The notes: generated by a model not told the origin, from the sequence alone. A DNA stretch of 64,000 nucleotides from Myxococcota bacterium (GCA_965224055.1 OZ245034.1:8182762-8246761); one strand, 5' to 3'. Numbered from the stretch's first letter, positions 5,929 to 51,600 are shown. Translations and numbers: made by a program.

Positions 5929-5935
5929 ACGTCCT

Positions 5936-5977: not shown

Positions 5978-6015
5978 AGAGAGGGCGCGCGCTCACCGGT
6001 GCCCACGGACCGATC

Positions 6016-6301: not shown

Positions 6302-6314
6302 GTTCAGGCTGCGT

Positions 6315-6405: not shown

Positions 6406-6425
6406 CGCGGATGAACGCGAGCGAG

Positions 6426-6683: not shown

Positions 6684-6755
6684 GCTTCCTCCGGAGTGGC
6701 CGCTCCTAACGGGTCGGGGATCCAGATGCTCGGCCCACCCTCGCGGTGCAGCCCC

Positions 6756-8648: not shown

Positions 8649-8655
8649 GCGGCCT

Positions 8656-9531: not shown

Positions 9532-9613
9532 CGGGTGCGCTTAACCGGAATTCTCCTCAGCCGGGTGACACCTGGGGCGGCCTGTGGTGTTCAACGGGCG
9601 TGAGGGAGGCGTA

Positions 9614-10279
9614 ATGACTGCACAGACCGGCCAGATCTGCCTGTTGGCGATGGGCTTCATCGGACTCGTGGGCTGCCACGGAGTCGCAGACGAGCGGGAC
9701 TACACGATCCGGGGCGACTTCCAGGACGTCCGGGTCGAGCTGTCCAACGGAGACCTGTCCATCCGGGCCGAGCCGGGGATCGATGCGATCCGGATGGAGG
9801 CCGACGTGGGCGGCATGGGGGGCGGCGACGCGGTCGACCGCTACATGGAGGGCGAGACGCTGGTGATCGACTACCGCTGCGGGTTCTGCGGCGGCGATGT
9901 CGAGCTGGTGGTGCCCGACCACCTCCCGATCGACGCCTGGGTGAAGCGCGGCGATCTGCAGCTGGACGGGCTGGCTGCACCGGTCGTCGCCGAGGTGCGC
10001 ACGGGTGCGATCGAAGGGCACGACCTGACCGCGGATGTCGAGGTGTTCGCGAACGCGGGAAGCGTCGAGCTCGAGTTCGTCGAGCGACCCGGCCTGGTGG
10101 ACGTCGAGAGCCACGTGGGAGCGGTGCTCCTGGAGGTGCCGTCCGGCGGCTACCAGCTCGATACGCGCGGACATCTGGGTGCAGTTCGTCTGGTGGACGT
10201 CTGGCAGGACGACGACGCGCTCGAGGAGATCCGGGTGTTCAACCACGCGGGCGAAGTCGAGATCCTCGGCAATCCGTGA
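9614..10279 (+). CDS. Putative lipoprotein (DUF4097-like / putative adhesin beta-rich domain)
   Basis: Start chosen at the ATG preceded by RBS GGGAGG. Lipobox LVGCHG. Repeated short beta-strand segments (VELEFVERPGLVDVESHVGAV...). Confidence 0.55.
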   Translation: MTAQTGQICLLAMGFIGLVGCHGVADERDYTIRGDFQDVRVELSNGDLSIRAEPGIDAIRMEADVGGMGGGDAVDRYMEGETLVIDYRCGFCGGDVELVVPDHLPIDAWVKRGDLQLDGLAAPVVAEVRTGAIEGHDLTADVEVFANAGSVELEFVERPGLVDVESHVGAVLLEVPSGGYQLDTRGHLGAVRLVDVWQDDDALEEIRVFNHAGEVEILGNP

Positions 10280-10300
10280 GGCGTACGGCTATGAAAGGCC

Positions 10301-36010: not shown

Positions 36011-38304
36011 TCGTGCTGCTCGTGCTGGGCTGTCGCCCCGACCCGGACTTCGGTCCGCCGTCTCCCGCCTCCTTCACCGACTCCCTTCCGGCTGTGGGGG
36101 CCGAGGTCGTTGCGGCTTCTGGAGGGCGTGAAGCCGCCGTCCTCGTGCGCTCGTTCAACGCCAACGGAGGCAGTGTGGGCGGGCCGGATGCGACGCTGGA
36201 GGTCGATGGCGTCGCCCAGACCGTGCCGATCGGTGCCCAGGGCTACGGAAGCATCGTGCTGGACGAGCCGGGCACGTACCAGGTCCGTGTCGGGCCGAGC
36301 GAAGTGACCACCCACGTGTACGGGTCCGACTGGCCGGGATTCGGGCTGCGCCAGAGCAGCGCTCCACCGATGCAGACCACGACCGACGCCATCCAGGCCG
36401 GCACCGGGATCCTCACCGCGGGCGAGACCGAAGTGTGGTGGTCGAGCGATGTCCTGCCCCCGCACCGGGTCCTGGTCACGGATGGTCGGCTGGGGGGCAT
36501 GGTCAGCGGCCACTACGACGGTGACGGCGTGCTCGATGCTGCGATCTGGGCGGGCGGAACCGTGCACTTCCTGCGCGGTCGGGCCGACGGCGGGATGGCG
36601 TACGCCGCTCAGCTGCGGTCGCCTTCACACGGCGTCGCTGGCGTGGACTTCGGGGACGCCGACACCGATGGGATCCCCGATCTGCTCGTCGCCTGGGTCG
36701 GGCCCCCCTCCATGGGTCGGCTGGACGTCTGGATGGGCAACGGCGTGGAGTACAGCCCACGTCCGAACCGCGTGCTGGTCGACCTGCCCTTCGACGTGGC
36801 GGCGGGCGACAACGTGGCCGAAGGCCGCAACCAGCTCACGGTCACGGTCGAGGGCGGCCAGTGGAACCGGTTCTTCGAGTACGAGAACGGCTTCGCCCCG
36901 ATCGGTCCGGCGCTCGAGCTCTCTCTCGAGGCCTTCACGCGCGTGTACTCCCCCGGCGACCTGAACGCCGACGGCACCGACGACCTGCTGTTCGTTCCGC
37001 CCTACCTGGCCGACACCGAGCGCCGGGTGGTGATGTTCGACCTCGACGAAGAGGTCTCGACGTTCACGGGCATCAACCGCGTCGATGCACACGTGGCGAT
37101 CGACGATCTGGACGGCGATGGGCTGATCGACCTGCTGTTCGCCGAGGGCTCGGGAACCCTGCTCGGGGTGCACGTGAACGACGAGCGGGACGGCCTCGAG
37201 ACCGACACGCTCTTCACGGGGCTTCCAGAAGGGGGCCCGGTCGCTCGTCTTCCGGGAACCGACCGTCTGCTGGTCGCGGGCGAGCAGGCCTGGCACTGGA
37301 TCGAGGGTCGCTCGACCTCCGATCCCACCGACCCCGACGAGGAGTGGTTCAGGGTGATCGATCGCCCGCTGGCATCCCCGGGCATCACCGTTCGCGACGG
37401 TCGGTTCGAGCTGGCCGAGCTCGATGGCGACTCCGCCACGGCCGAGGTCGTGGCGCTCAGAGGCGGCGAGGGCTCCACCCGTCTGCGCGTGTTCAGCGTC
37501 AACGCGGACGGGCTCCTGACGCGGGGCGACGTCGAGCTGGATTCCGAGATGACGCCGCTTCGCGACCTGGCGATGTGCGACGACGAGGTCTTCGTCCTGC
37601 TCGAAGACGCGCTGTACCGCGTCGACGTCTCGGATCCCGACGATCCGGTGCTGCTCGACTCCGCCACGCTGGTCGGCGACCGGGTGGCGTGTGGGCCCGG
37701 CCCTGCTGGGCCCGTCAGCGTGTTGGCCAACGGAACCGCCCTCCTCCTGGACGCGACGCTCACCCAGGTGGGCTCCAGCGGCGCCGCCGGGAGCGTCGAT
37801 CTCTTCCTGGACGAGTTCGGGACCTCGACCTGCGCTCGCAACGGCTGCGAGATCGTCCGGGGTCCGGTGGGGCCAGCCGGTCAGGTGGTCGATGTCGTCG
37901 GTTGGCCGGATGGCGCCGAGATCGACGGGACCACGGTGTTTGGTCGCGGGCAGCCCTCGATCGCAGATGTCGACGCGAACGGCTTCGCGGACGTCGTGTT
38001 GCACGATGCGGGGCAGATCGTGGTCTACCGCCACACGGGCGAGCAGCTCGGCGACCCCGAGGTGTTCGTGACCCGCCGTCCCATCACGGGTGCGCTGGCG
38101 ATCGCCGACTACGATGGCGACGGCTTCATGGACGCCTGGGGGGTCGACCCCGAGTCCTCTCGGCTGCGGATCACTCCCGCACCCGGCAGCGAGCCACTGA
38201 CTCCCGTCGACACGTCGGACACGTCGGACACGTCGGACACCGGTAGCGGTGGGCCGGGTTCCACGGGCGGCACGGGAAGCACGGCCGACACCGCCATCCC
38301 CTGA
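35998..38304 (+). CDS. FG-GAP/VCBS-repeat lipoprotein
   Basis: Lipobox VLGCRPD. Repeated DGDGVLD, DTDGIPDLL, DLNADGTDDLL, DLDGDGLIDLL and DYDGDGFMD units. C-terminal (TSD)3 Gly/Ser/Thr tail. Overlaps the subtilase gene by 13 nt. Confidence 0.75.
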   Translation: MRSMIVLLVLGCRPDPDFGPPSPASFTDSLPAVGAEVVAASGGREAAVLVRSFNANGGSVGGPDATLEVDGVAQTVPIGAQGYGSIVLDEPGTYQVRVGPSEVTTHVYGSDWPGFGLRQSSAPPMQTTTDAIQAGTGILTAGETEVWWSSDVLPPHRVLVTDGRLGGMVSGHYDGDGVLDAAIWAGGTVHFLRGRADGGMAYAAQLRSPSHGVAGVDFGDADTDGIPDLLVAWVGPPSMGRLDVWMGNGVEYSPRPNRVLVDLPFDVAAGDNVAEGRNQLTVTVEGGQWNRFFEYENGFAPIGPALELSLEAFTRVYSPGDLNADGTDDLLFVPPYLADTERRVVMFDLDEEVSTFTGINRVDAHVAIDDLDGDGLIDLLFAEGSGTLLGVHVNDERDGLETDTLFTGLPEGGPVARLPGTDRLLVAGEQAWHWIEGRSTSDPTDPDEEWFRVIDRPLASPGITVRDGRFELAELDGDSATAEVVALRGGEGSTRLRVFSVNADGLLTRGDVELDSEMTPLRDLAMCDDEVFVLLEDALYRVDVSDPDDPVLLDSATLVGDRVACGPGPAGPVSVLANGTALLLDATLTQVGSSGAAGSVDLFLDEFGTSTCARNGCEIVRGPVGPAGQVVDVVGWPDGAEIDGTTVFGRGQPSIADVDANGFADVVLHDAGQIVVYRHTGEQLGDPEVFVTRRPITGALAIADYDGDGFMDAWGVDPESSRLRITPAPGSEPLTPVDTSDTSDTSDTGSGGPGSTGGTGSTADTAIP
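38210..38241 (+). repeat. 9-nt tandem repeat (GACACGTCG)x3 encoding TSDTSDTSD
   Basis: Perfect triplicate nonamer near the 3' end of the FG-GAP/VCBS gene. Confidence 0.5.
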
Positions 38305-38396
38305 AAACGCCGGCTGCACGAGGGTGACGCTGCCCCGGGCTGCGAACGGCCCGGATCCCGTTAACGAAAAGGGCCCTCGCGACACTGTGTTTCCGG

Positions 38397-38426
38397 TTGA
38401 CCCACCCCCGATCGACCGCCTATAAG
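38397..38426 (+). promoter_or_regulatory. Candidate sigma-70-type promoter (TTGACC -N18- TATAAG)
   Basis: Lies about 50 nt upstream of the 38479 start. Preceded by a weak hairpin (CCGGGC-tgcgaacg-GCCCGG) after the FG-GAP gene. RBS GGAG 8 nt before the ATG. Confidence 0.35.
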
Positions 38427-38478
38427 GGCACGTCATGGGTCGGGACTTGATGTTCCCCCGCTGCTTCTGGAGTCCTGA

Positions 38479-39723
38479 ATGTTCCGGTTCGCGCCTGTTC
38501 TCGCGCTTCTCGCTGTCGGCTGTGCGCCGCAGTCCGCCGAAGTCGTCGAAGGCCAGATCGTCGGTTTCCTGTCCGCGACCACCTCGTTCACGCTGATCAA
38601 GGGCAACTTCGATCCGGAAGACGCGAACGAGTCCTGGAACGTCGACTGCCGGGAGCTCGAGGAAGACGGCGACCTCCTCTCGCTCGACGACCCCCTCGAT
38701 ATCTGCGACGACGGCGACTACCCGCCCCAGCGCGAGGTCTGGCTGGGTCTCGGCGCCTACCGTGGCTTCCAGGAGCCCCTCGATCCGTGGCGTGGCGAAG
38801 CCATCCTGCTCAACGAAGGCGATCTGCAGATCGGCTTCCACCAGCGCATGCCCGGCGGAGAGGACTTCCGGTTCATCTTCACCATCGACCCCGACTTCCA
38901 GCCCACCGAGTGCGCGCCGGACGGCAACGGCGGCGTCGAGACCCAGAACATCGACGGCAACTGGGTCGAGAACTGGTCCACCGAGATCGACAACATCCTC
39001 GAGCGCGACGCGGACGACGTTCCCCCGTTCATGCGCACCGCAGCCGAGGGCGCCGAGGGCGGCAGCCTGTTCTTCCTGAACGCCTTCTCGTTCCAGTGGA
39101 ACCCCGGTCCCGACTCGGCCGAGCAGGCCACCTGGACGCTTCCCGAGGCCTGGCGCTCCGGCTACTCTCTCGGCACGTTCGTCGAAGAGGACATGACCGG
39201 GCGCAACAACCGCTTCGCGGATCCGGCGTCCTACACGCTCGCCGATGCCGGTATCGGCGGCGGAGCTGAGCCCGACCTCATCTACTTCGGCGTCGACGAT
39301 TGCGAAGGCGATCCCACCTGCCTCGAGTACAGCGACCAGCGCGTGCTGGCGCGTCAGCATCGCAACCAGACCCGCAGGGAGTACGAGCTCGTCACCTCCC
39401 CCGCGGTCAACGACATCTGGGGCATGGAGCCCATCTGGCACGACAACGGCTGGCGCGAGTACGACGGCAACATCGCCGGTCTCGACAACTGGTCCGAGCT
39501 CGCGTACAGCTGGGTGATGGTCACGCCGGACTCCGACATGACCAAGGGTGGCAGCATGCACGGCTACTTCCACCTGATGCTCGAAGGCTCCGACAGCCAG
39601 TCCCGCATCTTCGTCGAGGGCGAGTTCGACGTTCCGCGGATCCGTGGTGAGAAGTGGGGCGCTCGCGACCTGCGCACCGAGAAGATCGAGGACGCCGAAG
39701 TCGACCTCTGCGCGGGCTACTGA
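38479..39723 (+). CDS. Hypothetical lipoprotein
   Basis: Lipobox LLAVGCAP. 414 aa, acidic, several Cys. No recognised domain. Confidence 0.6.
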   Translation: MFRFAPVLALLAVGCAPQSAEVVEGQIVGFLSATTSFTLIKGNFDPEDANESWNVDCRELEEDGDLLSLDDPLDICDDGDYPPQREVWLGLGAYRGFQEPLDPWRGEAILLNEGDLQIGFHQRMPGGEDFRFIFTIDPDFQPTECAPDGNGGVETQNIDGNWVENWSTEIDNILERDADDVPPFMRTAAEGAEGGSLFFLNAFSFQWNPGPDSAEQATWTLPEAWRSGYSLGTFVEEDMTGRNNRFADPASYTLADAGIGGGAEPDLIYFGVDDCEGDPTCLEYSDQRVLARQHRNQTRREYELVTSPAVNDIWGMEPIWHDNGWREYDGNIAGLDNWSELAYSWVMVTPDSDMTKGGSMHGYFHLMLEGSDSQSRIFVEGEFDVPRIRGEKWGARDLRTEKIEDAEVDLCAGY

Positions 39724-39745
39724 GAGCCCTTCAGCGCGGGATGAC

Positions 39746-40510
39746 TCAGCGCGGGACCAGTTGAGCGACCCACTTGAGCGACTTCGCGGTGAGGGGGTGG
39801 CCGGCGAAGTCCTCTGCTCGGAACACCACCCGGTAGCCAGCATCCTGGATCAGCTGTTCCAGCTCCTCGCGCTCGAACATCCGCAGGCGCAGATGGCACT
39901 TCTCTTCGCTGCCGTCGCGATGGCGGTACGTGTAGAGCACGTGGTGGGTGCGTGAAGGCTCGTCCCACCACCCCTGCTCCCAGGTGTGCAGGGGCTGGCC
40001 GGTTCGCGGGTCCGAGAAGATCCGGTGCTCGTAGGTCCGGTCGGGATCGCGGTCGTACAGCTCCCGATCGGGAAGGTAGGCGTCGACCGCAACGCGCCCG
40101 TTCGGGCCGAGGTGATCGCGGATCCAGGTCAGGGTCTGCACGACGTCGTCGGGCCCCTTGCAGTGATGGATGGCGTTGAACGGCCACAGGATGAGCGCGT
40201 AGTCGTCCCGCGGCGTGCCCGAGGGCTGCCGGAAGTCGCCTTCCCAGAAGCGGATGCGTGCCTGGACGTTCGGGGGCTCTGCTGCGAGCTTCAGGCGCAA
40301 CCCCTCCAGCATCGTGGGCTCGAGGTCGACGCCGTCGATCCGGATGCCGGCCCGAGCGATGGGCAGCGTGAGCCGACCGGTCCCGCAGCCGAGCTCCAAC
40401 ACGGGGCCGCGGGTCTGACGCGCCAGAGCCTGGTAGTACTCGATATCCTCGGTGTGAGCGGCGTATTCGAGGTCGTACAGCGCGGGGTCGGCATACGGGT
40501 TGTCGTTCAT
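39746..40510 (-). CDS. Class I SAM-dependent methyltransferase
   Basis: Motif I VLELGCGTGRLT and downstream acidic-loop and motif II/III pattern. Start at the internal ATG (MNDNPYADP). Divergent (43-nt gap) from the ammonia-lyase pair. Confidence 0.8.
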   Translation of the reverse strand: MNDNPYADPALYDLEYAAHTEDIEYYQALARQTRGPVLELGCGTGRLTLPIARAGIRIDGVDLEPTMLEGLRLKLAAEPPNVQARIRFWEGDFRQPSGTPRDDYALILWPFNAIHHCKGPDDVVQTLTWIRDHLGPNGRVAVDAYLPDRELYDRDPDRTYEHRIFSDPRTGQPLHTWEQGWWDEPSRTHHVLYTYRHRDGSEEKCHLRLRMFEREELEQLIQDAGYRVVFRAEDFAGHPLTAKSLKWVAQLVPR

Positions 40511-40553
40511 GGCGCGATTGTACTCCCAGGGGTGGGCCGGATAGGGGTCGCGG

Positions 40554-42182
40554 ATGCAACCGCTCGAGCTCACCGGAAACGATCTGACCCTGGCCGACGT
40601 CGCGGCGGTCGCGCGGTCCCGACGGCCGGTCGCACTCGCAGCCTCGGCGCGCGAGCAGATGGCGGCCTCGCGGGCCTGGGTCGAGAGCGTGGTGTCCGGC
40701 GACGACGACATGCCCGTCTACGGCGTGAACACGGGCTACGGGTCGCTGGCGCGGGTGCGCATCGACAACCACAACATCGCTCAGCTGTCGTGGAACCTGG
40801 TGCGCAGTCACGCGGCAGGGGTGGGGCCATCGGCGTCCCCTGCGGTGGTGCGGGCGATGATGCTGTTGCGCGCGAACGCGCTGGCCAAGGGGGCGTCGGG
40901 GGTCCGTCCGGCGCTGGTCGACACCCTGTGCGCCATGCTGGAGGCCGGGGTCACGCCCATCGTCCCCGAACGGGGCAGCTGTGGATCGTCGGGCGATCTG
41001 GCGCCGCTGTCCCACCTGGGGTTGGTGGTGTTCGAGGGGCCGCGCGATGCGGCTCGGGATTCGTCCGCTCCAGACGGGTCGGTCGAGGATCGGGAGTCCG
41101 GCGAGGCGCTGTACGATGGGCGTCGCATGTCCGGGGCTGCGGCCATGCGCCAGGCCGGGATCCAGCGGCTCGTTCCGGCTCCCAAGGAGGGGCTGGGCAT
41201 GATCAACGGTGCCCAGCTCACCTGTGCGATCGCGGCCCTCGCCGCGGTCGATGCGAGTCGACTGGTGGTCGCGAGCGAGATCGCGGCGGCCATGAGCTTC
41301 GAGGCGCTCTTCGCGGTGACGCGCGCGCTCCACCCGGGTGTGCACCGGCTCCGCGCGTACGTCGGCGCCCGTCAGACGGCGGCCAACCTCCTGCGGCTCG
41401 TCGAGGGGAGCAGCCTGGTGGATGCGCTGCCAGACAAGGTGCAGGACGCGTACAGCCTGCGGTGCATGCCCCAGGTCGTCGGGGCTGCGCGGGACGGCAT
41501 CCGCTACGCGGCCGGGCAGATCGAGGTCGAGCTGAACAGCGTCACCGACAACCCCGTGGTGCTCCTGGACGTCGACGGTCCCAACAAGGCGTTCTCGGCG
41601 GGGCTGTTCCACGGCGAGCCACTGGGGATGGCGGCCGACCACCTGAAGCTGTGCGTGCTGGAGGTCGGGGCCATCTCGGAGCGACGGATCTACCGGCTCA
41701 CCACCGACAAGCTGTCGGCCCGGCTGCCTCCACTTCTGGCCGAGAAAGACGGGTTGCGGCTGGGATTGATGATGCCCCAGGTGTCGGCTGCCGCCCTGGT
41801 CGCTCAGAACCGCCAGCTGGCGTACCCGGCCTCGGCCGACAGCATCCCCACCTGCGAAGACCAGGAGGATCACGTCGCCATGAGCACCACGGCCGCGCGT
41901 CGAGCAGCCGAGGTGGTCGACAACACCCACCACATCGTGGCGATCGAGCTGTTGGCCGCCGCAAAGGGCTTGTGGTCGCGGCTCACGAAGGATCCGTCCG
42001 CGAAGCTCGGGGTCGGCACCGCTGCCGCTCTGGACGCTGTCGAGGCGGCCCTCGGGGGGCGGCGCACCTCCGAAGCACCGGCGGACGACATCGAAGCCCT
42101 GGGGCGGATCGTCCGCGACGGGAGCCTGATCGACCGCGTCCAGCAGGCCACGGGGCCGCTCCAGGGGGTCCTCGATGGCTGA
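40554..42182 (+). CDS. Aromatic/histidine ammonia-lyase family enzyme (HAL/PAL/TAL fold) with an Ser-Ser-Gly motif where HAL has the Ala-Ser-Gly MIO triad
   Basis: YGVNTGYG (catalytic Tyr region), GSCGSSGDLAPLSH (MIO triad region; SSG instead of the canonical ASG), NPVV and FHGEP segments. 542 aa. Confidence 0.85.
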   Translation: MQPLELTGNDLTLADVAAVARSRRPVALAASAREQMAASRAWVESVVSGDDDMPVYGVNTGYGSLARVRIDNHNIAQLSWNLVRSHAAGVGPSASPAVVRAMMLLRANALAKGASGVRPALVDTLCAMLEAGVTPIVPERGSCGSSGDLAPLSHLGLVVFEGPRDAARDSSAPDGSVEDRESGEALYDGRRMSGAAAMRQAGIQRLVPAPKEGLGMINGAQLTCAIAALAAVDASRLVVASEIAAAMSFEALFAVTRALHPGVHRLRAYVGARQTAANLLRLVEGSSLVDALPDKVQDAYSLRCMPQVVGAARDGIRYAAGQIEVELNSVTDNPVVLLDVDGPNKAFSAGLFHGEPLGMAADHLKLCVLEVGAISERRIYRLTTDKLSARLPPLLAEKDGLRLGLMMPQVSAAALVAQNRQLAYPASADSIPTCEDQEDHVAMSTTAARRAAEVVDNTHHIVAIELLAAAKGLWSRLTKDPSAKLGVGTAAALDAVEAALGGRRTSEAPADDIEALGRIVRDGSLIDRVQQATGPLQGVLDG

Positions 42183-43695
42183 TGTCGTGCTCGATGGTCG
42201 TCGGCTCACGCCCCGCCAGGTCCAGGATGTCGCTCGGGGCGCGTCGGTGTCGATCGACCCCGCAGCTCTGCAGCGCATGGCCGAGTCCGCCGCGATGTTC
42301 CCGCGGTCCATCATCCGCGAGAAGTGGTCGCTGCTGGTCGGGGGCGAGGCACCCGCAGAATCCGCGGCTGCGATCCGTACCTTCATTCAGGGGCACTGCG
42401 CAGGGGTCGGCGAGCCGCTTCCCACCGAGGTCGTGCGCGCGCTGATGTGCGTGCGGGCGAACGTCCTCGCCACCGGCCTCACGGGTGCGCGTCGCGAGGC
42501 GGCCGAGCTGCTCGTGGCCATGCTGGAGCACGGGATCACGCCGGTCGTTCCCCGCGTGGGTTCCGTCGGAGTCGGGGGGAGCATCGCGCTGGCCCACATC
42601 GTCCGCGTGATGTGCCGCTACGGAGGGCGGGCCGAGGTCGACGGGGTGCGTCTGGATGCCGCCGAGGCGATGGCGCGGCTCGACTGGTTCACCCCCACCG
42701 AGAAGGACGCGTTGTCGCTCATCAACGGCAGCACCCTCACCACGGCGATGGGCGCGCTGGCCGTGGCCGGGGCGCACACGTTGTTGGACGCTGCTGTGGC
42801 CGCCTGTGCCCTGTCGATGGAGGTGGTCAAAGCCGATGTCCACTGCCTCGAAGATGGGCCTCTCGTCGCGCGGAACCACCAGGGCGCTGTCCAGGTCGGG
42901 CGCCGATTGCGGTTGTTGCTGGACGGGAGCACCCTGGCGACGCCTCAGCGGATGCCGGACTCGTTCTCGATCCGCTGTGCTCCCCATGCCCTCGGAGCGG
43001 CCTACGACACGGTGCGCTACTGCGAAGACGTCGTGGTGCGCGAGCTGAACGGCGCCATCGACAATCCATTGGTGTTCGCCGACAGCCGACAGGTCCTCGA
43101 AGGCGGCAACTTCCACGGCGCCCCGGTGGCGCTGGTGATGGACCACCTCAAGGCCGGGCTCACCCAGGTGGGCTCGATGGCCGAGCGACGCCTGTTCCGC
43201 CTGGTGTACGGCCAGCTGTCGGGCCTGCCGAGCTTCCTGGTCCACGGAACCGGGATGAACAGCGGCTTCATGCTCGCCCAGTACACCGCGGCCAGTCTGG
43301 TGAGCGAGTGCAAGGGGTTGTCCCATCCGGCCAGCGTCGACAGCCTCCCCACGATCCAGCATCACGAAGACCACGTGTCCATGGGCCCGAACGCGGCATC
43401 GGGTGCGCTGCATCTGGTCGATCTGCTCTCGGACGTGGTCGCGATCGAGCTCTTGTGCGCGGCTCAGGGGCTCGACTTCCACCTGGCTGGAGATGCCGTC
43501 GATCCCGATGGCAATCGGGTGTCCGTCGCGGTCGAGCGAGCAGGAGCCGGAACCGCCGCCATCCACGCGGTCGTGCGGGGGCTCGTCCCGCGCTGGGAGT
43601 CCGACCGGGTCCTGCACTCCGATCTCAAGCGACTCGGTGTGGCCGTGCGGTCCGGCATGTTCGGACGCGAGGCGATCGAGCGGCGCTTCGGCTGA
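42175..43695 (+). CDS. HAL-family paralog lacking the MIO triad and the YGVNTG motif (predicted non-catalytic partner)
   Basis: Overall HAL-like architecture (ARDGIRY-like, DNP, FHGAP, HHEDHVSMG). The MIO position reads GSVGVGGSIALAH with no Ser-Gly and no DLxPL, and there is no Tyr-loop motif near the N-terminus. Its start overlaps the upstream HAL stop by 8 nt. Confidence 0.75.
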   Translation: MADVVLDGRRLTPRQVQDVARGASVSIDPAALQRMAESAAMFPRSIIREKWSLLVGGEAPAESAAAIRTFIQGHCAGVGEPLPTEVVRALMCVRANVLATGLTGARREAAELLVAMLEHGITPVVPRVGSVGVGGSIALAHIVRVMCRYGGRAEVDGVRLDAAEAMARLDWFTPTEKDALSLINGSTLTTAMGALAVAGAHTLLDAAVAACALSMEVVKADVHCLEDGPLVARNHQGAVQVGRRLRLLLDGSTLATPQRMPDSFSIRCAPHALGAAYDTVRYCEDVVVRELNGAIDNPLVFADSRQVLEGGNFHGAPVALVMDHLKAGLTQVGSMAERRLFRLVYGQLSGLPSFLVHGTGMNSGFMLAQYTAASLVSECKGLSHPASVDSLPTIQHHEDHVSMGPNAASGALHLVDLLSDVVAIELLCAAQGLDFHLAGDAVDPDGNRVSVAVERAGAGTAAIHAVVRGLVPRWESDRVLHSDLKRLGVAVRSGMFGREAIERRFG

Positions 43696-43768
43696 GGCCA
43701 TCGCGTCGGGTGAAACGGTTCGGCAGTCTCCGGCATACCCCGAGTCGAGCCCCCACCCCGGAGCGTCC

Positions 43769-44497
43769 ATGTCCGTTCTCGCCGCGCTGTTGTTCTCGCT
43801 CTCCGGTCCCGCTGTCGCGGCCGAGCCGGTCGCCCTCGTCGAGCTGTTCACCAGCCAGGGCTGCAGCTCGTGTCCACCTGCCGATGCCCTCGCGCAGGAG
43901 CTCGCGGCCGAAGCCCGGCGCGGAGAGCAACCCCTGGTCGTGCTGTCGTTCCACGTCGACTACTGGAACCGCCTGGGCTGGCCCGACCCCTACAGCGATG
44001 CCGAGTTCACCGCTCGCCAGCGCGCCTACTCGGCCAGCCTCGGGGAAGGGGGGCGGATCTACACCCCTCAGGTGGTCGTGAACGGCGCCGATCACGCGGT
44101 GGGGTCGAACCGCGGCCTGGTGAAGGGGCTGATCGCAGGTGCCCTGTCGAAACCCGCGACCGCGACGGTCTCGGGCGAGGCCAGCTTCGCGAAGGACACC
44201 GTGTCCGTGAGCGTGAAGACGGGCGATGCTCCGAAGAACGCCACGGTCTTCGTAGCCCTGGTCGAGCCCGAGAAGACCAACGTGGTCCCGCGGGGGGAGA
44301 ACAGCGGAAAGACCCTGTCGCACGCGAACGTCGTGCGGGCCCTGGTCGAGGTGTCGATGCAGGACGGCGATGGCCAGGCCACGCTGTCGATCCCGGACGA
44401 CGTGGAGCGCGAGGATGCCCGCATCGTCGCCTGGGTGCAGGACGCGCTCACCAACCACGTGCTCGGCGCCGGGGCGCTGCCGCGTTCGGAGAGCTGA
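43769..44497 (+). CDS. DUF1223-family secreted thioredoxin-like protein
   Basis: Signal peptide, then VELFTSQGCSSCPPAD (CxxC), then HVDYWNRLGW, characteristic of DUF1223. Confidence 0.7.
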   Translation: MSVLAALLFSLSGPAVAAEPVALVELFTSQGCSSCPPADALAQELAAEARRGEQPLVVLSFHVDYWNRLGWPDPYSDAEFTARQRAYSASLGEGGRIYTPQVVVNGADHAVGSNRGLVKGLIAGALSKPATATVSGEASFAKDTVSVSVKTGDAPKNATVFVALVEPEKTNVVPRGENSGKTLSHANVVRALVEVSMQDGDGQATLSIPDDVEREDARIVAWVQDALTNHVLGAGALPRSES

Positions 44498-45922
44498 TCA
44501 GTCGCCGGAGCCGTGGCCGACACGCGGCAGGTCGCGGTCCAGGTCCCAGTCGGGGTCCCACTTCTCGGTGTGGCACGAGGTGCAGACCGCTTCGATGACG
44601 CACACCGGGCAGTCGTCGCCCAGGCGTTCGATGTTGTCTTTCCCGCCACCGGCCTCGATGTGTGCGCCACCAGGTCCATGACAGGCCTCACAGCCCACGC
44701 TCTCGTCGATGCGGAACGCGGCGAGGTCCGACCCTGGAGGCCCGCCTCTGGCGCCTGTGGCGTGGCAGCGTACGCACGCGACGTCCTCCTCGGCCCCTTC
44801 CGGCACCTTCTCGCCGGGCGTCTTCAGGGTGGCCATCGCGGTGCCGTGGGGGGTCTTCTTCCAGTCGGCGTACTCGGCTTCGTGGCAGCTCTTGCACGCC
44901 TCTGCGCCGCGGGTCTCGGCGTCTTCGAAGGCCAGGAGCGGCCGGGGAGCCTCGCCGTCGACCAGCGCCAGGCGACGCTCCCGGAATTCGTCGTCCGAGA
45001 TGGCCACGCCCGCGTAGTGATCGATGAGCGGCAGGCCCTTCTCGACCGTGAACGCGATGCTGTGCTTCTCGTCGTGACAGCCCGCACAGGTCGATGTCGC
45101 GTCGGTCTTCTCGCCGTCGTGCGGACCCGATGGCCCGTGGCACGACTCGCACCCGACGTTCACGAGGTCGGGTGTGGAATCGCCCGTCCAGCCGGTCTTC
45201 TCGCCGTTGCCGGTCACGTGACAGCCCGTGCACTCGCGGTTGTCGTGGTCGCCCTTCTTCACCAGCGTGCGCCAGGCGACGGAGTGGTGGGACAGCGCCC
45301 AGCCTTCGAGCTCCTGCTGGTGACAGCCTCCACAGCTGCCGTTCCCGAGGTAGGTGCCGTCGAAGGCCTTCCAGGGGTCGTCGAGCACCCGCATCTTCAC
45401 GTAGGTGTCGAAGCCCGGCTGATAGGGGTACCAGAGGTCGACGATGCGGTACGTGCCCTTCTTCTTGCCCGGCTCGACCAGGATGGCCGACGGAGTGGAG
45501 CGCACGCCGAGCTCGCTCGAGATGGTGCGCCCGAGATCGACGACCACCTCGTCTTCGATGCCGTACTCCTTGCGGAAGTCCTCGACGTCGCCCTTGAGCG
45601 AGCTGCCCGTGGCCACGCCGATCACGGTGGCTTTGCCCTTCAGCGCGCGTCCGAGATCGCCGAGCTCTCTGCCGACGGCCTGACAGTGAGGGCAGCTGGG
45701 CGAGAAGTAGTAGATGAACGACCGGCCCTTCCCGAGCTTCTTGGCGAAGTCGTCGTCGAACGACAGCTCGGGGAGCTCGGAGGTGTCGGGGCCGGCCAGC
45801 ACCCGGGGTGCACCGATGGCCATCTGCCCTTCGCTCCAGCCACGGGGGTCGGCGGTGGTGGCGATGGCGGTGGTCACGACCAGCAGCAGGGCGATGGACA
45901 GGGCCAGAACACGGCGACTCAT
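44498..45922 (-). CDS. Thioredoxin-like (TlpA/ResA-type CPHC) domain fused to an octaheme c-type cytochrome
   Basis: Signal/TM N-terminus. FSPSCPHCQ thioredoxin motif. Eight CXXCH motifs (CGGCH, CTGCH, CESCH, CAGCH, CKSCH, CVRCH, CEACH, CTSCH). Start ATG overlaps the upstream gene stop (ATGA). Confidence 0.8.
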   Translation of the reverse strand: MSRRVLALSIALLLVVTTAIATTADPRGWSEGQMAIGAPRVLAGPDTSELPELSFDDDFAKKLGKGRSFIYYFSPSCPHCQAVGRELGDLGRALKGKATVIGVATGSSLKGDVEDFRKEYGIEDEVVVDLGRTISSELGVRSTPSAILVEPGKKKGTYRIVDLWYPYQPGFDTYVKMRVLDDPWKAFDGTYLGNGSCGGCHQQELEGWALSHHSVAWRTLVKKGDHDNRECTGCHVTGNGEKTGWTGDSTPDLVNVGCESCHGPSGPHDGEKTDATSTCAGCHDEKHSIAFTVEKGLPLIDHYAGVAISDDEFRERRLALVDGEAPRPLLAFEDAETRGAEACKSCHEAEYADWKKTPHGTAMATLKTPGEKVPEGAEEDVACVRCHATGARGGPPGSDLAAFRIDESVGCEACHGPGGAHIEAGGGKDNIERLGDDCPVCVIEAVCTSCHTEKWDPDWDLDRDLPRVGHGSGD

Positions 45923-48612
45923 GGGGTCTCCAGTTCGCGATCGGTGGAGTCGGCGTCGAGCAGGCGAGCGCGGAGCTTCTCGGCGCGGCGTCGTACCCAG
46001 GCTCGGGATGGATCGGCCGCGAGTGCATCGGTCCAACGCGCGAAGGCGGCTTGATCGTCCCCGGCTGCGAATGCGGCATCCCCTTCGGCTTCCCAGCGGT
46101 CGGCGAGCACCGACCCTGCCTGGACGACGGCTTCGGGGTGGTGGTCGTACCGGCGGGCCTTCGCGATCAGCGCGGGGTCGTCGGTGGCTTCGGCCTGGCG
46201 GGCCCAACAGCTCGCCAGGGCGGCGTCGACCCGGGGGTCGGTCGAGGTGTGCCAGGGGTCTTCGGGGGGGAGGTGTCGGCGCGCCTGGCTCCAGCGGCTC
46301 CACGCCTCGTCGCATCGGCCCGCATCGGCGGCCTCGACAGCGGCTTGGACCCCGGAATCGGCCGTCTGCACGACCTGGTTGCGGGGTGCGACCTCGATCA
46401 GGCCCACGAACCGGGCCTCTCCGGCCATGAACACCGGACGACCCACCTGGCGGCTCAGGTCGGTCTCGCCCGCTTCGTCCTTGGGGGTGCCGGCGAATCG
46501 GGCGTCGTTCACATCGTCCGGGATCACGGCGACTCCGACGTCGTACCGCCCTGGGGGCAGGTCGTCGGGAAGGGACACGGTATGGCGGCCGACCATCACC
46601 TGCTTACGCCTCCAGCGCGGAACCGGAATCCAGTCGTATGCAGGTGGGAGCTCCTTCACCACGCGCAGGCCTGCGGGCCCCTCGCCGGTCTGGGACAGGA
46701 AGAGCAGCGCGCGGAAGCCGTTGGGGCGGCGCGTTAAGGACCAGCCGATCTCGACGTACAGCCCACCGCCGGGGTGGACCTGGGGAGCGGGGACCTCGAG
46801 CCCGTTCATCCGGGCCTTGCCGAAGTCGACGCGACGCCCCGGAGTCCCGTGCCACACGTCTTCGGTGAACAGATCTTTGCGGACGTGGTTGCCGACGTGG
46901 AACTTGCTCGGGCTGTGGCCGTAGCCCGGGATCTCGACGTAGTTCGGCCGGAACCAGGGGCGCTTGTCGATGCCGGTCTTTCGGGCCCAGCCGCCGTGGA
47001 CGTGGGCGAAGGTGGGGTTCCGCTCGCCTCGGACGTAGTCGTCGATGAACGCGCGGTCGTAGTGATGGCGTGCGATCGGCACGTCGACCAGCCCCGCCAT
47101 GTCGGTGAGCTCGAAGCCCGACCACCACATGTGGGCGCCCATGTCGACCTCGAGAAGGCTGGCGTGATCGAGGTGGAGGCGCGCCTGGACGCCCTGCATG
47201 TACAGAACGCGACGGCGGACGTCGAAGGGCGTGGTCTCCAGGCCGAACAGGAACGAGACGGTCTGGCCGAAGCCGCTGGCGAGCACGGGAAACACGAGCA
47301 ACAGCGCGATGACGCCCGGCATCATGGGGCGCTTTGCGAGTCGCATGCTGATCGCGTCGGCCAGGGGCTTGCCGGTCGCGGCCAGGTGGCGGGCGGCGTC
47401 GGCCAGCAGCACGGCGAGAGGGACGTAGGCCATGTTGAGCCAGCGATAGCCGCGCATCCAGTCGCCGCCGGTGTACACGGCGAAGAACAGGGCGCACAGG
47501 GTGAGGACCCACGCGAGCATCCGGGCGGTGTGGCCCCCTCTTCCGATGCCGAGCAGGGGGAACAGCGCCGCGCACAGGATGAGGGTGCCGACACGGATCT
47601 GTACGGCGAGCTCGGGCTCGGGGGGCAGGTCGAAGGGGCCGTACGCGCGGAACCAGTGCACGCCGGAGAAGCAGACGCCCATCAGGATCCCGGTGGCGAC
47701 GAGCCCCACCATCCCGCGCCACCCGCGCGCGCCCGATTGGCCCAGGGTGTACAGCGGGAGCAGGAAGCCCTGGGTGCTGACGAGAGCCCAGCGTCGCACG
47801 TAGTTCCAGCCGCGCTCTCCCCACCCGAAGGGCTGGAACTTCTCGTCGGTGAGCTTGGCGTAGTACGTGTTCGGAAACTCCCAGGCGAAGGTCCAGTATC
47901 GCCAGGCGTGCCAGGTGCAGAACGGAGCGAGTCCGGCGAGCGCGAAGCTGGCCAACCAGCGGAATCCTCCGGCACGGACGGCCCAGATGGCCCCGAACAC
48001 CGCGATCACCCCCGCGTACATGGGGGCTTCGGGCCGGGTGATCGCCAGCAGGCCCAACAGCACGCCGGACAGGCCCCAGCTCGGTCGGTCGCCCTCGGCC
48101 AGGATCCGCACGGCCCCTGCCGCCAGCAGCAGGGTGAACAAGCCGTTCTCCAGTCCGGATGCGCTCCACAGCACGTGTTGGGTGGACACGGCGAGCACAA
48201 GGGGGGCGAGGAGCGGCCAGTTGCCGGGGTCGGCCCCTTGTTCTTCGGCAGTGCGACGGGCCCAGAGGTACGCCAGGGGGAGGCATGCCAGCCCGAAGCC
48301 CAGCCCCAGCAGCTTCCCGGTGATCCAGGGGGGGAGGCCGAAGAACGCGGTGACGGCGAGCAGCAGGGTCCAGGTGGGGTTGCTGAAGCCTTCGACCGGC
48401 TCTGCACCGGGGGTGGGAACAGGCCCCTCGCCGTGCGCGATGTTCTCGGCGAACGCGTAGCTGATGGCGGCGTCTTCGATCAGCCAGGTGCTGAACCACA
48501 CGGCGTGAAAGCAGTACACGGCCATGCACAGCACGATGCCGGTGACGTGGCGACGCCCAGTGGGGGACAGCGCGGCGAAGCGTCGTGCGAGGGCGTCGAG
48601 CAGCTGCGTCAT
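45919..48612 (-). CDS. Large polytopic membrane protein, GT-C-like (ArnT/PMT/Emb-like) putative glycosyltransferase, paralog A
   Basis: More than 10 TM helices. Conserved first-loop motif WLIEDAAISYAFAEN (a D/E pair as in GT-C enzymes). Conserved soluble C-terminal domain (HFAHVHGGWA, YVEIPGY, HVGNHVRKDLF) followed by a TPR-like tail. Start at the internal ATG (MTQLLDAL). Confidence 0.65.
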   Translation of the reverse strand: MTQLLDALARRFAALSPTGRRHVTGIVLCMAVYCFHAVWFSTWLIEDAAISYAFAENIAHGEGPVPTPGAEPVEGFSNPTWTLLLAVTAFFGLPPWITGKLLGLGFGLACLPLAYLWARRTAEEQGADPGNWPLLAPLVLAVSTQHVLWSASGLENGLFTLLLAAGAVRILAEGDRPSWGLSGVLLGLLAITRPEAPMYAGVIAVFGAIWAVRAGGFRWLASFALAGLAPFCTWHAWRYWTFAWEFPNTYYAKLTDEKFQPFGWGERGWNYVRRWALVSTQGFLLPLYTLGQSGARGWRGMVGLVATGILMGVCFSGVHWFRAYGPFDLPPEPELAVQIRVGTLILCAALFPLLGIGRGGHTARMLAWVLTLCALFFAVYTGGDWMRGYRWLNMAYVPLAVLLADAARHLAATGKPLADAISMRLAKRPMMPGVIALLLVFPVLASGFGQTVSFLFGLETTPFDVRRRVLYMQGVQARLHLDHASLLEVDMGAHMWWSGFELTDMAGLVDVPIARHHYDRAFIDDYVRGERNPTFAHVHGGWARKTGIDKRPWFRPNYVEIPGYGHSPSKFHVGNHVRKDLFTEDVWHGTPGRRVDFGKARMNGLEVPAPQVHPGGGLYVEIGWSLTRRPNGFRALLFLSQTGEGPAGLRVVKELPPAYDWIPVPRWRRKQVMVGRHTVSLPDDLPPGRYDVGVAVIPDDVNDARFAGTPKDEAGETDLSRQVGRPVFMAGEARFVGLIEVAPRNQVVQTADSGVQAAVEAADAGRCDEAWSRWSQARRHLPPEDPWHTSTDPRVDAALASCWARQAEATDDPALIAKARRYDHHPEAVVQAGSVLADRWEAEGDAAFAAGDDQAAFARWTDALAADPSRAWVRRRAEKLRARLLDADSTDRELETP

Positions 48613-48616
48613 GGGG

Positions 48617-51600
48617 TCACTTGCGCGGCGTGGGCTTCTTGGCCTTCCGCTTCCGCTCCTTGGCGGCTCGGTCGCGTTTCTCCCGTGCCTCGCGGGCTCT
48701 CTGCATCCTCTCCTCGCGTTCGGCGGCCCGCTTGGCCTCCTTCTCGGCGAGGGATTCCGGATCGATGCCCAGGCGGAGGGCTCGGGCCTCCTCGGCGTAG
48801 CGACGGGCCCAGGAGCGCCACGGATCGGCGCGCAGCACCCGGGAGAAGTGCTCGAAGGCCTCCTCCCAGTTGCCGGCCTCCCGCGCGGCCATGCCCAGGG
48901 CGTAGTGGGCGTCCGCAACGGGGTCTTTCGCCTCGAGATAGGCGGGCTGGCGGTGGTCGTGCAGGCGAGCACGCTCGAGGTAGGTGACGGCGAGCTCGGA
49001 GTCCGGGGGCTCCTGCTTCGCGCGCCACGACCAGCAGATCGACAGCTGCATCGCCACGGTGGGGCCGTGCTGGTTGCGGTATCGCTTGTCGATCGGGCGG
49101 TGGCGCTTGGAGAGGAACCAGCTGTGCTCGGCCTTCTCGCAGCGTCCCTTTCGTCCGTGCTCGAGGGCTTCCTGGCGATCGGTCTTGGCGAGGGTGGACA
49201 GCTCGTCGAGGGACACGACGGTCAGCGCGCCGGGGAACACGACCTCGCCCTCGACGTAGATGGGCTCGCGGGTGGGCCGGACCTCGTCCTCGTCGGTGGT
49301 CCCGATCCACGCGCCGTCTGGGAGGGTGGGCTCGGGCTCGTCGGGGTCGGGCTGGACCTCGGGGTCGTCGGGGGTGGGGACGGGTCGTGGCGGCAGCACG
49401 GCGCCGTCGGGATCGAAGAACGCGAACCCGATGTCGTAGTCGCCCACGGCCATGTCCTTGGGGATGGGCAGCTTGTAGCGACCCACGTTGACCTCGTTCG
49501 GCTTCCACTCGTCGGCGGGCAGCCACCCGTAGTTGAGCGGGATGGCCCAGGTCTGGACGAGCTCTCCGTTCTGGCTCGCGAACATGTGGACCGCGACGTC
49601 CTCGCCCTCTTTGCGGGCCAGCGCGTTGCGGATCGCGATCTCGACCCACATCAAGCGGGCCTGCGCGGGCTCGCTCGGCAGGTCGAAGCCCTCGAGCACC
49701 AGCCCGCCCTGCATGGGGATGCGGCGGTCGGGCTGGTCGCTGCGGGGTTCGTAGCGCCGGGACAGGAACAGGTCGCGCCGGACGTGGTTGCCGATGTGGA
49801 GCTTGGTGCGGCCGGCGGGGTAGCCCGGGATCTCGACGTAGTCGCGCCGCCACTCGGGATGCGTGGGGATGCGGGAGTTGCTGGCCCAGCCCCCGTGCAC
49901 GTGCGCGAAGTGGGGGCGCCGCTCCTCGAACAGGTATTCGCGGATGAAGGGCTTCTGGAAGCGGTGCTGGGCCATCGGGATGTCGACCAGCCCGGCGATG
50001 TCCATCATCGCGAGCTCGCCCCGACCCCACCACAGATGCGCGCCCTGATCGACGTCGAGATCGACCATGGGCCCCTCGATCTCCAGGGTGTCTTTGAGGT
50101 CCAGCACGAACTGCACGCGCTTCTTGATCGCGAACGGACCGGTCTCGGGGAAGGGGAGCACCGCCATCGTGTGGGTGATGTTCGGAATCAGTGCCGTGGC
50201 GGCGATCAGCGACAGCACCGTCCATCCGGCCATGGTCCACGGGCCTCTCGAGCGCTCCGAGAGCAATCCGCCCATCAGGGCCGTGATCATCGCGCCCTCG
50301 ATGATGGCGAGCAGCCACCACTTGCCGAGCACGAACTCCGGGCCTGCGACGGTCCAGATGACGATCAGCACCACCTGCATCACGGCCCAGAACACCTTGT
50401 CGCCCGCGAACGAGCGGGCCCGGACGAACACCCGATCGACGGCGTCGGCCAGGGCGCCGGCCCCCATCGCGAACAGCACGGCGGCGGGGACCTGCAACAG
50501 ACTCATCCAGCGCCAGGCCTTCATCCAGTCGCCCAGCGTGTAGATGCTGAAGAACAGCACTCCGACGGCGATCCCCCAGCACAGCACGCGCGCCTGCCAG
50601 CCCTTGCGTCCGCCCAGAGCCAGGTTGGGCAGCAACAGGGCGGCGCCGACCATCATCCAGGACCGCCCGTCGACCCACCAGGTGGGCGCCGGCATCCCCT
50701 GGGGCCACCACGGAATCGTGTTGAAGGCGTCGTTGGTGGGGTAGATCAGCCAGAACGCCATGAACAGCAGGGCGAACAGCGCGACGATGCCCCGCCAGCC
50801 ACGCGTTCCGACGAGCCCGAAGATCCACAGCGGGAGGAAGTACGCGGTCCACAGGTCGTGCGACCAGTTCCGGACGTAGCGCCACCCGCGGGTGTTCCAC
50901 GCCATCTTGGGGTCCTTCGTGGTCATCTTGCCGTAGTACGTCTGCGGGAACTCGTAGGCGAAGTACGAGAACCGCACGGCGTGGTAGACCCCGAACGGGA
51001 CGAAGAACAGCGCCAGCCACTGCAGTGTGCGTCTCACGCCCACCTTCGTGCCGTGTGCGTGCAGGGCGAAGCACATCGTCAGGAAGCCCGCGATGGCGCA
51101 GTACAGGATGGCTTCCGGGCGAGAGATGGCGAGCAGGAACCAGAAGAACGCCGCGAACGGGAAGCCACCGGTGCGGATCTCGATGGCCGACCGGAGGAGG
51201 GCCGCGGCCAGGATGCAGTTGAACAGCGCGTTCTCGAGTCCGCACGACGCCCAGATCGCGTAGGTGCTGGCGGCTGCGAGGTAGCTCGCAGCGACCAGGG
51301 GGGCGTGGCGCTGGCCGGCCTCGTTGGGCGAGGCTTCACGGGCCAGCCAGTAGACCAGCGGGACCGTGATGCCGCCGAGCACGGCCTGGAGAACCTTCGA
51401 CGCATCGAAGCTGTCGAAGCCGAGCAGCTCTGCCACGGTGAGCAGCGCCACCCAGGTGAAGTTGGAGTAGCCCTCGAGCCGCTCGCCGCCGGGGTAGGCC
51501 ACCAGCCCTTCTCCCCAGGCCCAGTTGCGGGCGAAGGCGAACGAGATGGCGGCGTCTTCGATGTACCAGCCCCAGAACTGGAACTGGTGCCAGACGACGC

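Follow-up and report, generated by a model that had tools for sequence, protein, structure and literature searches.

The 64-kb stretch of DNA analysed here (OZ245034.1:8182762-8246761; hereafter the window) has a G+C content of about 69% and comes from a 9.4-Mb contig, with related sequences labelled Myxococcota. It contains two adjacent forward-strand genes, G1 and G2, which encode paralogous members of the histidine ammonia-lyase (HAL) family, and we suggest below that their products are the two subunits of one enzyme. Both proteins exceed the PF00221 cut-off of 27.3 bits (Table 1). The genes overlap, with the stop codon of G1 and the start codon of G2 sharing ATGGCTGA, and AGGGGG is read directly 5′ of this site; the 8-nt overlap, as it reads in the sequence, indicates that translation of the two genes is coupled. 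Residue numbers are those of Pseudomonas putida HAL, to which both proteins were aligned, unless they are given as positions in G1 or G2.

G1 resembles a working lyase through most of its length. Its Tyr loop, YGVNTGYG, holds the base equivalent to Tyr53, and GSCGSSGDLAPLSH (aa 141-154 of G1) aligns to P. putida HAL GSVGASGDLAPLAH, so that the triad giving rise to the 4-methylideneimidazole-5-one (MIO) electrophile reads Ser-Ser-Gly rather than Ala-Ser-Gly. Tyr53, His83, Ser-Ser-Gly, Asn195, Gln277, Tyr280, Arg283, Phe329 and Glu414 are present in all 27 of 27 G1 orthologs, with Ser82 also present in the window's G1, and the catalytic and histidine-binding residues of the N-terminal and central parts are, as judged from the alignment, all intact. 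Among the best 120 homologs of G1 the Ser-Ser-Gly triad is found in 120/120, with Ser at column 142 invariant in the family, while the loop YGVNTG(Y/F)G is found in 117 and the wider form Y-G-x-N-T-G-x-G in all 120. Entropy over the Tyr loop (HAL 50-64) is correspondingly low, at 0.32 bits.

G1 nonetheless stands apart from the enzymes that it resembles. It passes the PRK09367 HAL subfamily model (536.6 against a cut-off of 524) but falls below the hutH equivalog TIGR01225 (518.6 against 539.15) and scores 330 and 323 with the aminomutase models TIGR03832 and TIGR04475, whose cut-offs are 501 and 800. It differs from canonical HALs at positions 76, 197, 317 and 328, and within the histidine pocket it has Ser82, His83 and Glu414 but varies among M, L, F and I at position 382, the canonical NSG...MLAQY helix being lost. 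On these sequence comparisons G1 forms its own Ser-Ser-Gly clade, in which the 365-394 segment is relaxed, and falls slightly short of a canonical lyase. Compared with P. putida HAL it also has extra residues inserted behind the MIO loop (window 41034-41111, aa 161-186 of G1); the spacing in this region exceeds that of HAL by about 8-9 residues in 14 of the 15 homologs in which it was measurable, and the window's G1 has about 11 further acidic low-complexity residues there (EGPRDAARDSSAPDGSVEDRES).

G2 has the fold of the family and has lost the residues of MIO chemistry. An AlphaFold2 model (mean predicted local distance difference test score 87, predicted template modelling (TM) score 0.90) matches the HAL structures 6V6H, 1B8F and 7TQR in Foldseek with TM scores of 0.84-0.86, ergothionase scoring lower at 24-25% identity; the segments modelled with low confidence are aa 130-133 (the MIO-equivalent loop), aa 355-357 and aa 392-399 (the Glu414 loop). 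The motifs DNP, NFHGAP and HHEDHVSMG are present, as are His83, Asn195, Arg283, Phe329, Met382 and Glu414, and of 84 alignment columns in which canonical HALs reach an invariance of 95% or more, G2 retains 57. G2 fails PRK09367 (416.1), lies below TIGR01225 (407.4) and scores 241 and 217 with the two aminomutase models. Among 1.8 billion 50%-identity representatives, searched exhaustively, only some dozen G2-type clusters occur, below which the scores fall into ordinary HALs with an Ala-Ser-Gly triad.

The Tyr loop is replaced in G2 by REKWSLLVGG. At the Tyr53 column 86% of G2 sequences have W, Lys50 is invariant in a 17-sequence alignment, and the family motif is (R/E)KW..L.GG; the window's G2 has no Tyr within its first 80 residues and the family no conserved N-terminal Tyr. 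Among the best 120 relatives (53-80% identity) the canonical loop is absent wherever the N-terminal region is present, most having the K-W motif instead. The MIO site reads GSVGVGG-SIALAH, with a one-residue deletion after Val-Gly-Gly; across the family it is GAAG or GVGG, with Ala-Ala-Gly in most, and the MIO serine is absent in 120/120. The methylidene of MIO comes from the Ser143 side chain, and with Ala or Gly at column 143 G2 is therefore unable to provide the electrophile. Two further catalytic positions have also changed, column 280 being F in 99% of G2 sequences and column 277 Pro or Ala across the family. What is most conserved is the pocket helix; Gly376, Met382, Thr387, His416 and Gln447 stand at 100% in G2. 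Of the histidine-pocket residues His83, Met382 (100%) and Glu414 are present and position 82 is Gly. Lys50, Trp51, Cys84 and His412 (with His413 in most) are new invariant residues. The retention of binding residues together with these new invariants suggests that the MIO-less pocket is probably not inert; histidine, urocanate or some other ligand may bind there, or the pocket may hold the 410-418 loop of G1.

The original prediction, made from the window alone, had given G1 the YGVNTGYG loop and a Ser-Ser-Gly triad, and had described G2 as overlapping it by 8 nt, keeping DNP, FHGAP and HHEDHVSMG, carrying VGG-SIALAH at the MIO position and lacking the Tyr loop. Alignment to P. putida HAL and reading of the shared ATGGCTGA at 42175-42182 agree with it in each respect, and the losses in G2 go beyond those it listed, with Gln277 to Pro and Tyr280 to Phe added. 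It had named as a refuting result that the two genes are not conserved together in relatives; they are found together in 25/26 GTDB loci and in 3/3 loci examined in reverse.

The GTDB set comprises 26 species loci with a G2-type gene at 45% identity or more, and in those 25 the gene directly before it, in the same orientation, is of G1 type (51-65% identical to G1). Conversely, three of three G1-type proteins from contigs outside the G2 list have a second PF00221 gene, of G2 type, directly downstream, and 45 contig-length fingerprints are common to the two independent top-120 lists for G1 and G2. The genes overlap in 25 of 28 adjacent pairs at other loci; the overlap is 4 nt long in 21 of these and 8 nt long in the other 4. 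From other phyla the scan recovered HALs that are, with few exceptions, encoded by single genes. The two-gene arrangement is shared by many Myxococcota and recurs in dozens of independent assemblies, and the pair is therefore neither a chance association nor a misassembly.

The partnership is also an old one. A neighbour-joining tree that includes 57 single-gene HALs (P. putida HAL and 56 taken from the loci) shows G1 as one monophyletic group and G2 as another, both on long stems, and mean identities are 39% between G1 and G2, 46% between G1 and canonical HALs and 41% between G2 and canonical HALs. The window's G1 and G2 are 37% identical over 456 residues, the N-terminal 70-80 or so residues being unaligned, an identity that implies a long-standing partnership and not a recent duplication or misassembly. 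Both of these were rejected as well on the monophyly of each family and on G1 being nearer to canonical HALs than to G2. G2 is more diverged than G1 in 98.6% of ortholog pair comparisons, and the ortholog distances of the two families are correlated (r=0.84).

The two families have decayed in complementary places. Among the 84 canonical invariant columns, 48 are kept in both families and 8 are lost in both; 19 are lost only in G2, all of them before residue 340 (53, 54, 57, 58, 60, 75, 82, 112, 113, 139, 143, 145, 146, 148, 245, 253, 277, 280 and 331), and 9 only in G1, all of them after it (370, 376, 379, 382, 387, 394, 416, 418 and 447). The split of these two sets around residue 340 has a Fisher p of 1.4e-7. 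The G1-only losses within 365-394 are Phe370, Gly376, Ser379, Met382, Thr387 and Glu394. Sequence entropy follows the same division: before HAL 365, G1 is more conserved in nearly all 15-residue windows, whereas at 365-394 the order inverts (1.34 and 0.80 bits in G1, 0.79 and 0.16 bits in G2), and HAL 440-454 and 470-484 are also more conserved in G2. Over HAL 380-394 canonical HALs, at 0.46 bits, lie between the two.

The segment at which the order inverts is the pocket helix with Met382, for which the consensus is GlnSGlMlaQyTAAaLvSE in canonical HALs, G.NSGlMLAQYTAASLvSE in G2 and pglGlm.PQttAAaLVaen in G1. Its residues in G1 are variable and not fixed anew, and we therefore read the change as relaxed constraint rather than as a new specificity. 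The helix corresponds to that of ergothionase Lys384 and to the Lys456/Ile460 pocket helix of phenylalanine ammonia-lyase (PAL), an enzyme in which Ile460 and Glu484 are pocket residues. Only a composite of G1 and G2 would hold the full set of Ser82-His83, Met382 and Glu414. Beside the Glu414 loop, the canonical Ala of column 411 is Glu in 100% of G1 (aa 435, nt 41856-41858) and Gln in 99% of G2 (aa 395, nt 43357-43359); the change in both families may be a reciprocal adaptation of shared sites, or may mark a metal or ligand site.

Each HAL active site is put together from three monomers, and mutagenesis of two HALs has shown Tyr53, His83, Asn195 and Glu414 to be essential (PMC11432326). A heteromer can therefore divide the elements of an active site between its chains, and a heterotetramer is the simplest reading of the observed motifs, fold, co-conservation, coupling and complementary decay. 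We accordingly propose, with a probability of roughly 60%, that G1 and G2 together make up a heteromeric ammonia-lyase of HAL type that depends on MIO, its most likely form being a G1(2)G2(2) tetramer. In the G2 model, Phe329 lies beside that chain's own MIO site, a 29-residue helix then leads away, and Met382 stands at its far end, from which residues 365-394 would be expected to reach the active site of another chain.

In the enzyme that we envisage, G1 would supply the chemistry, with MIO formed from Ser145-Ser146-Gly147, Tyr56 as the base (HAL Tyr53), and His83 and Asn195, and a second G1 chain would contribute the Gln277/Tyr280/Arg283 helix. G2 would supply the C-terminal wall of the pocket (HAL 365-394 with Met382, and probably the Glu414 loop), closing the substrate-ring pocket of its neighbour. 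If the tetramer has D2 symmetry and a two-fold axis relates its G1 chains to each other, two complete composite sites would result, while the two reciprocal pockets, made of the N-terminal half of G2 and the C-terminal half of G1, would be catalytically dead but might still bind a ligand. The decayed Tyr and MIO loops of G2, its positions 277 and 280, and the 365-394 helix of G1 would all fall in these two dead pockets. The start/stop overlap would hold G1 and G2 at 1:1, and its near-universal occurrence fits equimolar co-assembly. Selection on G2 is purifying although its catalytic residues are gone, and it is inherited together with an active paralog, a combination expected of a prozyme (below).

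The enzyme would be expected to remove ammonia by anti-elimination from L-histidine, or from an imidazole compound closely analogous to it, giving urocanate or the enoate of the analogue. The Gln-His-His of G2, taken with the G1 changes at positions 76, 197, 317 and 328, suggests that the substrate could be a histidine derivative. The chances seem to us about even that this is the first naturally heteromeric enzyme of the MIO family, an obligate G1(2)G2(2) assembly that arose by reciprocal degeneration, with two live sites joining the chemistry of G1 to a G2 wall that bears the new Gln-His-His, with MIO-less pockets repurposed for ligand binding or regulation, and perhaps acting on a histidine derivative outside the hut pathway.

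Several observations weigh against this interpretation. We infer the complex, its stoichiometry, the assignment of chains to sites, the activity and the substrate from genomics and a single-chain model, and that Met382 and Glu414 reach the MIO of another chain is presumed from the structures 1B8F/1GKM and from the helix geometry of the G2 model. The correlation of ortholog distances is what shared phylogeny alone would give. Adjacency is broken in a marine lineage from the TARA ocean metagenome (L081-L084), in which G1 and G2 lie 2.9 kb apart, and one GTDB locus (L018, 5377-6873) has G2 with nothing of G1 type in the 5.4 kb that lie upstream before the contig ends or in the 7 kb downstream; here G2 either stands alone or is set farther apart from its partner. 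The 410-418 loop of G1 (PTCEDQEDHVAMS; Cys410, Glu411, Asp412, Ala418) is hyper-conserved in a new state, the supposedly dead pocket of G2 keeps His83, Asn195, Arg283 and Phe329, and, as regards the substrate, the composite site would hold Gln411-His412-His413 of G2 in place of the canonical Ala-Asn-Gln.

The original prediction had cast G2 as the non-catalytic partner of a canonical lyase. The partnership is strengthened by the family-wide losses, the co-conservation, the overlap and the complementary decay; its description of G1 does not hold entirely, since G1 is below the hutH cut-off and not quite canonical. A partner of another kind could be considered, in that G2 might be a ligand-binding paralog that is not a stoichiometric subunit, such as a sensor of histidine or urocanate, a factor for assembly or MIO maturation, or a separate binding protein. 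Conserved substrate-binding residues without the chemical ones are the usual signature of a pseudoenzyme, and co-conservation suits any functional partnership. We nevertheless regard this as improbable, because a separate regulator would not release the 365-394 helix of G1 from constraint and because overlap in 25/28 adjacent pairs points to equimolar co-assembly; we also know of no precedent for a non-subunit regulatory paralog in the HAL fold.

Somewhat less probable still is that G2 is an independent, MIO-free homotetrameric enzyme, for example a trimethylammonia-lyase acting on hercynine or ergothioneine, or one with other imidazole-acid chemistry, in the same pathway as a homotetrameric G1. 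Active MIO-less homologs of HAL do exist (ergothionase and the histidine-betaine lyases), consecutive enzymes of a pathway often share an operon, and G2 keeps both the imidazole ligands His83/Glu414 and the carboxylate ligands Arg283/Asn195 alongside its new invariants Cys84, His412 (His413 in most), Lys50 and Trp51. However, the characterised trimethylammonia-lyases all keep the Tyr that accepts the beta-proton and the Gln-Arg-Asn triad, and G2 is without the Tyr, Gln277 and Tyr280; it is also far closer to HAL (243-263 bits) than to ergothionase. Separate enzymes would leave unexplained both the relaxation of G1 at exactly the helix that G2 keeps and the near-universal 4- or 8-nt overlap. 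As an ergothionase or betaine lyase in particular, G2 is ruled out by the missing Tyr base and Gln277.

The immediate neighbours of the pair had been read by the original prediction as its functional partners, in a four-gene system making a methylated unsaturated acid. The divergent methyltransferase and the following DUF1223 protein are indeed there, with corrected gene starts (Table 1). The methyltransferase lies 43 nt from G1 after this correction and matches Methyltransf_25, Methyltransf_12, Methyltransf_23 and Methyltransf_11 of Pfam; in NCBIfam it comes closest to a daptide-type methyltransferase, with 94 bits where 175 are required, the class-I matches being generic. The DUF1223 protein is probably unrelated to the lyases. 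The absence of hut genes, also noted at the outset, is borne out, with no urocanase, imidazolonepropionase or formiminoglutamase domain among the 44 open reading frames (ORFs) of the window screened against Pfam.

Table 1. Features of the G1/G2 locus; positions are counted from the first nucleotide of the window.
Feature	Coordinates	Strand	Description
G1	40554..42182	+	542 aa; HAL-family catalytic-type subunit, distinct Ser-Ser-Gly clade; PF00221 540 bits
G1 Tyr loop YGVNTGYG	40719..40742	+	aa 56-63; base equivalent to HAL Tyr53 by alignment to P. putida HAL
G1 MIO triad Ser-Ser-Gly	40986..40994	+	aa 145-147; aligns to HAL Ala142-Ser143-Gly144
G1 segment equivalent to HAL 378-396	41754..41810	+	LRLGLMMPQVSAAALVAQN; pocket helix, relaxed constraint in G1 family
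G1/G2 overlap	42175..42182	+	8 nt; G1 stop and G2 start share ATGGCTGA
G2	42175..43695	+	506 aa; MIO-less HAL-family paralog without Tyr loop; PF00221 414 bits
G2 REKWSLLVGG	42316..42345	+	In place of Tyr loop; Trp51 at Tyr53 column
G2 Val-Gly-Gly	42571..42579	+	aa 133-135; at MIO triad
G2 DSFSIRC	42958..42978	+	Phe for HAL Tyr280, Arg283 kept; Gln277 to Pro just upstream
G2 pocket helix and loop	43255..43386	+	MNSGFMLAQYTAASLVSE, HAL 377-394 with Met382; PTIQHHEDHVSMG, HAL 408-420 with Glu414
Class-I S-adenosylmethionine-dependent methyltransferase	39746..40510	-	254 aa; likely start Met68 of long ORF; divergent from G1
DUF1223 protein	43769..44497	+	Corrected start; signal peptide and CSSC motif; 73 nt 3′ of G2

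Co-conservation of the four genes was examined by clustering all ORFs of 28 pair loci (the window and 27 others), together with 3 annotated loci. A divergent methyltransferase is kept in L001, L003, L005 and L085, at 54-73% G1 identity, and this, its closeness to G1 and the lack of hut genes are what speak for the larger system. Against it, a methyltransferase is near the pair in just 5 of the 28 loci (the window, L001, L003, L005 and L081) and, with L085, in 6/32 overall, and its family matches are generic class-I ones that all fall below cut-off; DUF1223 adjoins the pair in the window only (0/31 other loci), which largely refutes its membership. The flanking genes elsewhere differ widely and are mutually unrelated (ATP synthase alpha, MoxR/DUF58, a polyunsaturated fatty acid (PUFA)-synthase-like polyketide synthase, histidine kinases, an epimerase and surface repeat proteins). 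A four-gene system is thus very doubtful, and it was rejected on the constancy of the lyase pair alone in the 28 clustered and 3 annotated loci; with that linkage gone, nothing supports a methylated unsaturated acid as product. Since the flanks vary and the pair is constant, the functional unit is the two-gene pair. That G2 is a functionless decaying duplicate or an assembly artefact can be dismissed: it has evolved faster than G1 and lost its catalytic motifs, but its ORF is full-length and intact in every locus, it has many invariant columns (HAL 380-394 at 0.16 bits against 0.46 in canonical HALs), it is carried by independent assemblies from many samples, and its 37% identity to G1 adds to conservation data that already refute the idea.

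Other genes recur near the pair less regularly. A 414-aa protein without a Pfam match is encoded at window 38479-39723 (+) and has a lipoprotein-type signal peptide (MFRFAPVLALLAVGC); its homologs lie upstream of the pair in 10/28 loci, often with an FG-GAP repeat protein, and this could be conserved synteny or some other link. An FG-GAP protein is near the pair in 6/28 loci. No hut cluster recurs beside the pair in the 27 other loci clustered, a few of whose neighbour clusters were inspected by eye, or in the Pfam-annotated neighbourhoods, and the clusters inspected include no consistent hut or biosynthetic partner. A very large PUFA-synthase-like enzyme with ketosynthase, acyltransferase and tandem acyl carrier protein domains lies about 1.6-2.9 kb downstream of G2 in L002, L003, L006 and L013. 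At the split loci L081-L084, a methyltransferase and a 435-aa protein of unknown function are still near the pair, and in L081 (about 5454-11500) a PAS/GAF histidine kinase-response regulator hybrid and a 2Fe-2S ferredoxin lie between G1 and G2 on the opposite strand.

On the other side of the pair, the window encodes at 44498-46315 (-) an unusual fusion of a thioredoxin-like AhpC/TSA-Redoxin domain with multihaem cytochrome c554/c7-type domains; a homolog that is 55% identical is found at the end of L030, downstream of its lyase pair. The 1017-aa product of 45919-48972 (-) is predicted to be a multi-pass membrane protein and matches nothing in Pfam at E<=0.001; after it, on the same strand, comes a 1064-aa TPR protein. 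The wider surroundings are ordinary chromosomal genes (GpsA, SelB, AspRS, Ser/Thr kinases, FG-GAP proteins and PspA). A scan of 38300-44700 for promoters and terminators gave 0 promoter-like and 1 terminator-like site, which is at chance level and uninformative. Some of the records for L001, L005, L006, L010, L013 and L017 are titled 'uncultured Enterobacterales/Enterobacteriaceae bacterium' in spite of their Myxococcota-type pair, and another pair-bearing record is titled 'Alphaproteobacteria' with an isolate name containing MYXO; these titles look unreliable for taxonomy.

If the proposed enzyme is real, the pair would illustrate how a symmetric multi-subunit enzyme can become an obligate heteromer by complementary degeneration, and would give the trypanosome prozyme systems a counterpart in bacteria. 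It also bears on annotation and biocatalyst mining. NCBI and JGI label the proteins of the pair just 'histidine ammonia-lyase' or 'aromatic amino acid lyase', neither clade has an NCBIfam model of its own, and hundreds of database entries under these two names belong to the pair; half of them cannot be lyases alone, and the rest may work poorly or not at all if produced singly. The MIO-less pocket with its kept binding residues and the proposed composite site with its altered His-rich loop both offer starting points in the search for a new ligand or substrate.

The literature, searched in full text for a heteromeric HAL, a MIO-less HAL partner, a Ser-Ser-Gly MIO and hutH1/hutH2, yielded no account of a pair like this one. 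To our knowledge, the characterised HAL, PAL, tyrosine ammonia-lyase and aminomutase enzymes are all homotetramers of one gene product, and we rate the pair as a heteromeric form of the HAL/MIO family that contains a pseudo-subunit. HutH, represented by P. putida HAL (1B8F/1GKM), is the same in fold and length, with G2 at a TM of about 0.85, and G1 shares its catalytic and histidine-binding residues, with position 382 variable, and passes PRK09367. However, HutH forms homotetramers from the product of a single gene, has an Ala-Ser-Gly triad and is usually encoded in a hut operon, whereas here there are two paralogs, 37% identical, encoded by a translationally coupled pair with no hut genes nearby (44 ORFs, 64-kb window).

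The trimethylammonia-lyases (ergothionase of Treponema denticola, 6S7J, and the histidine-betaine lyases of Shewanella) resemble G2 in being without the Ala-Ser-Gly triad and in keeping imidazole and carboxylate ligands, which in G2 are His83, Glu414, Arg283 and Asn195. They differ in that they keep the Tyr base and the Gln, both lost from G2, and act alone as homotetramers, whereas G2 is nearly always paired with a MIO-competent paralog. Ergothionase is a weak match to G2 (117 bits, 24-25% identity), and its Lys384 has no counterpart in the Met382-Leu383-Ala384 helix of G2, which contains no Lys; G1 is excluded from this class by its MIO triad.

In the fumarase-aspartase superfamily, argininosuccinate lyase/delta-crystallin has active sites built from three subunits, and mixtures of defective subunits regain complete sites. 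The decay of G1 and G2 would be a fixed, natural version of this intragenic complementation; there, the defective subunits are mutant alleles of one gene in another family, whereas G1 and G2 are two evolved paralogs. The closest mechanistic precedent is that of the trypanosomatid prozymes, in which deoxyhypusine synthase, AdoMetDC and PRMT1 each pair an enzyme with a dead paralog in an obligate heteromer with active sites at the interface (PMC3663545; bioRxiv 10.1101/776112), and the dead paralog, in a heterotetramer with a weakly active enzyme, raises activity up to 3000-fold (PMC3663545). Those systems are eukaryotic, have other folds and have complexes and activation demonstrated by experiment, whereas the partnership of G1 and G2 is deduced from genomics and is encoded by overlapping bacterial genes; the logic that we propose for the two is nonetheless the same.

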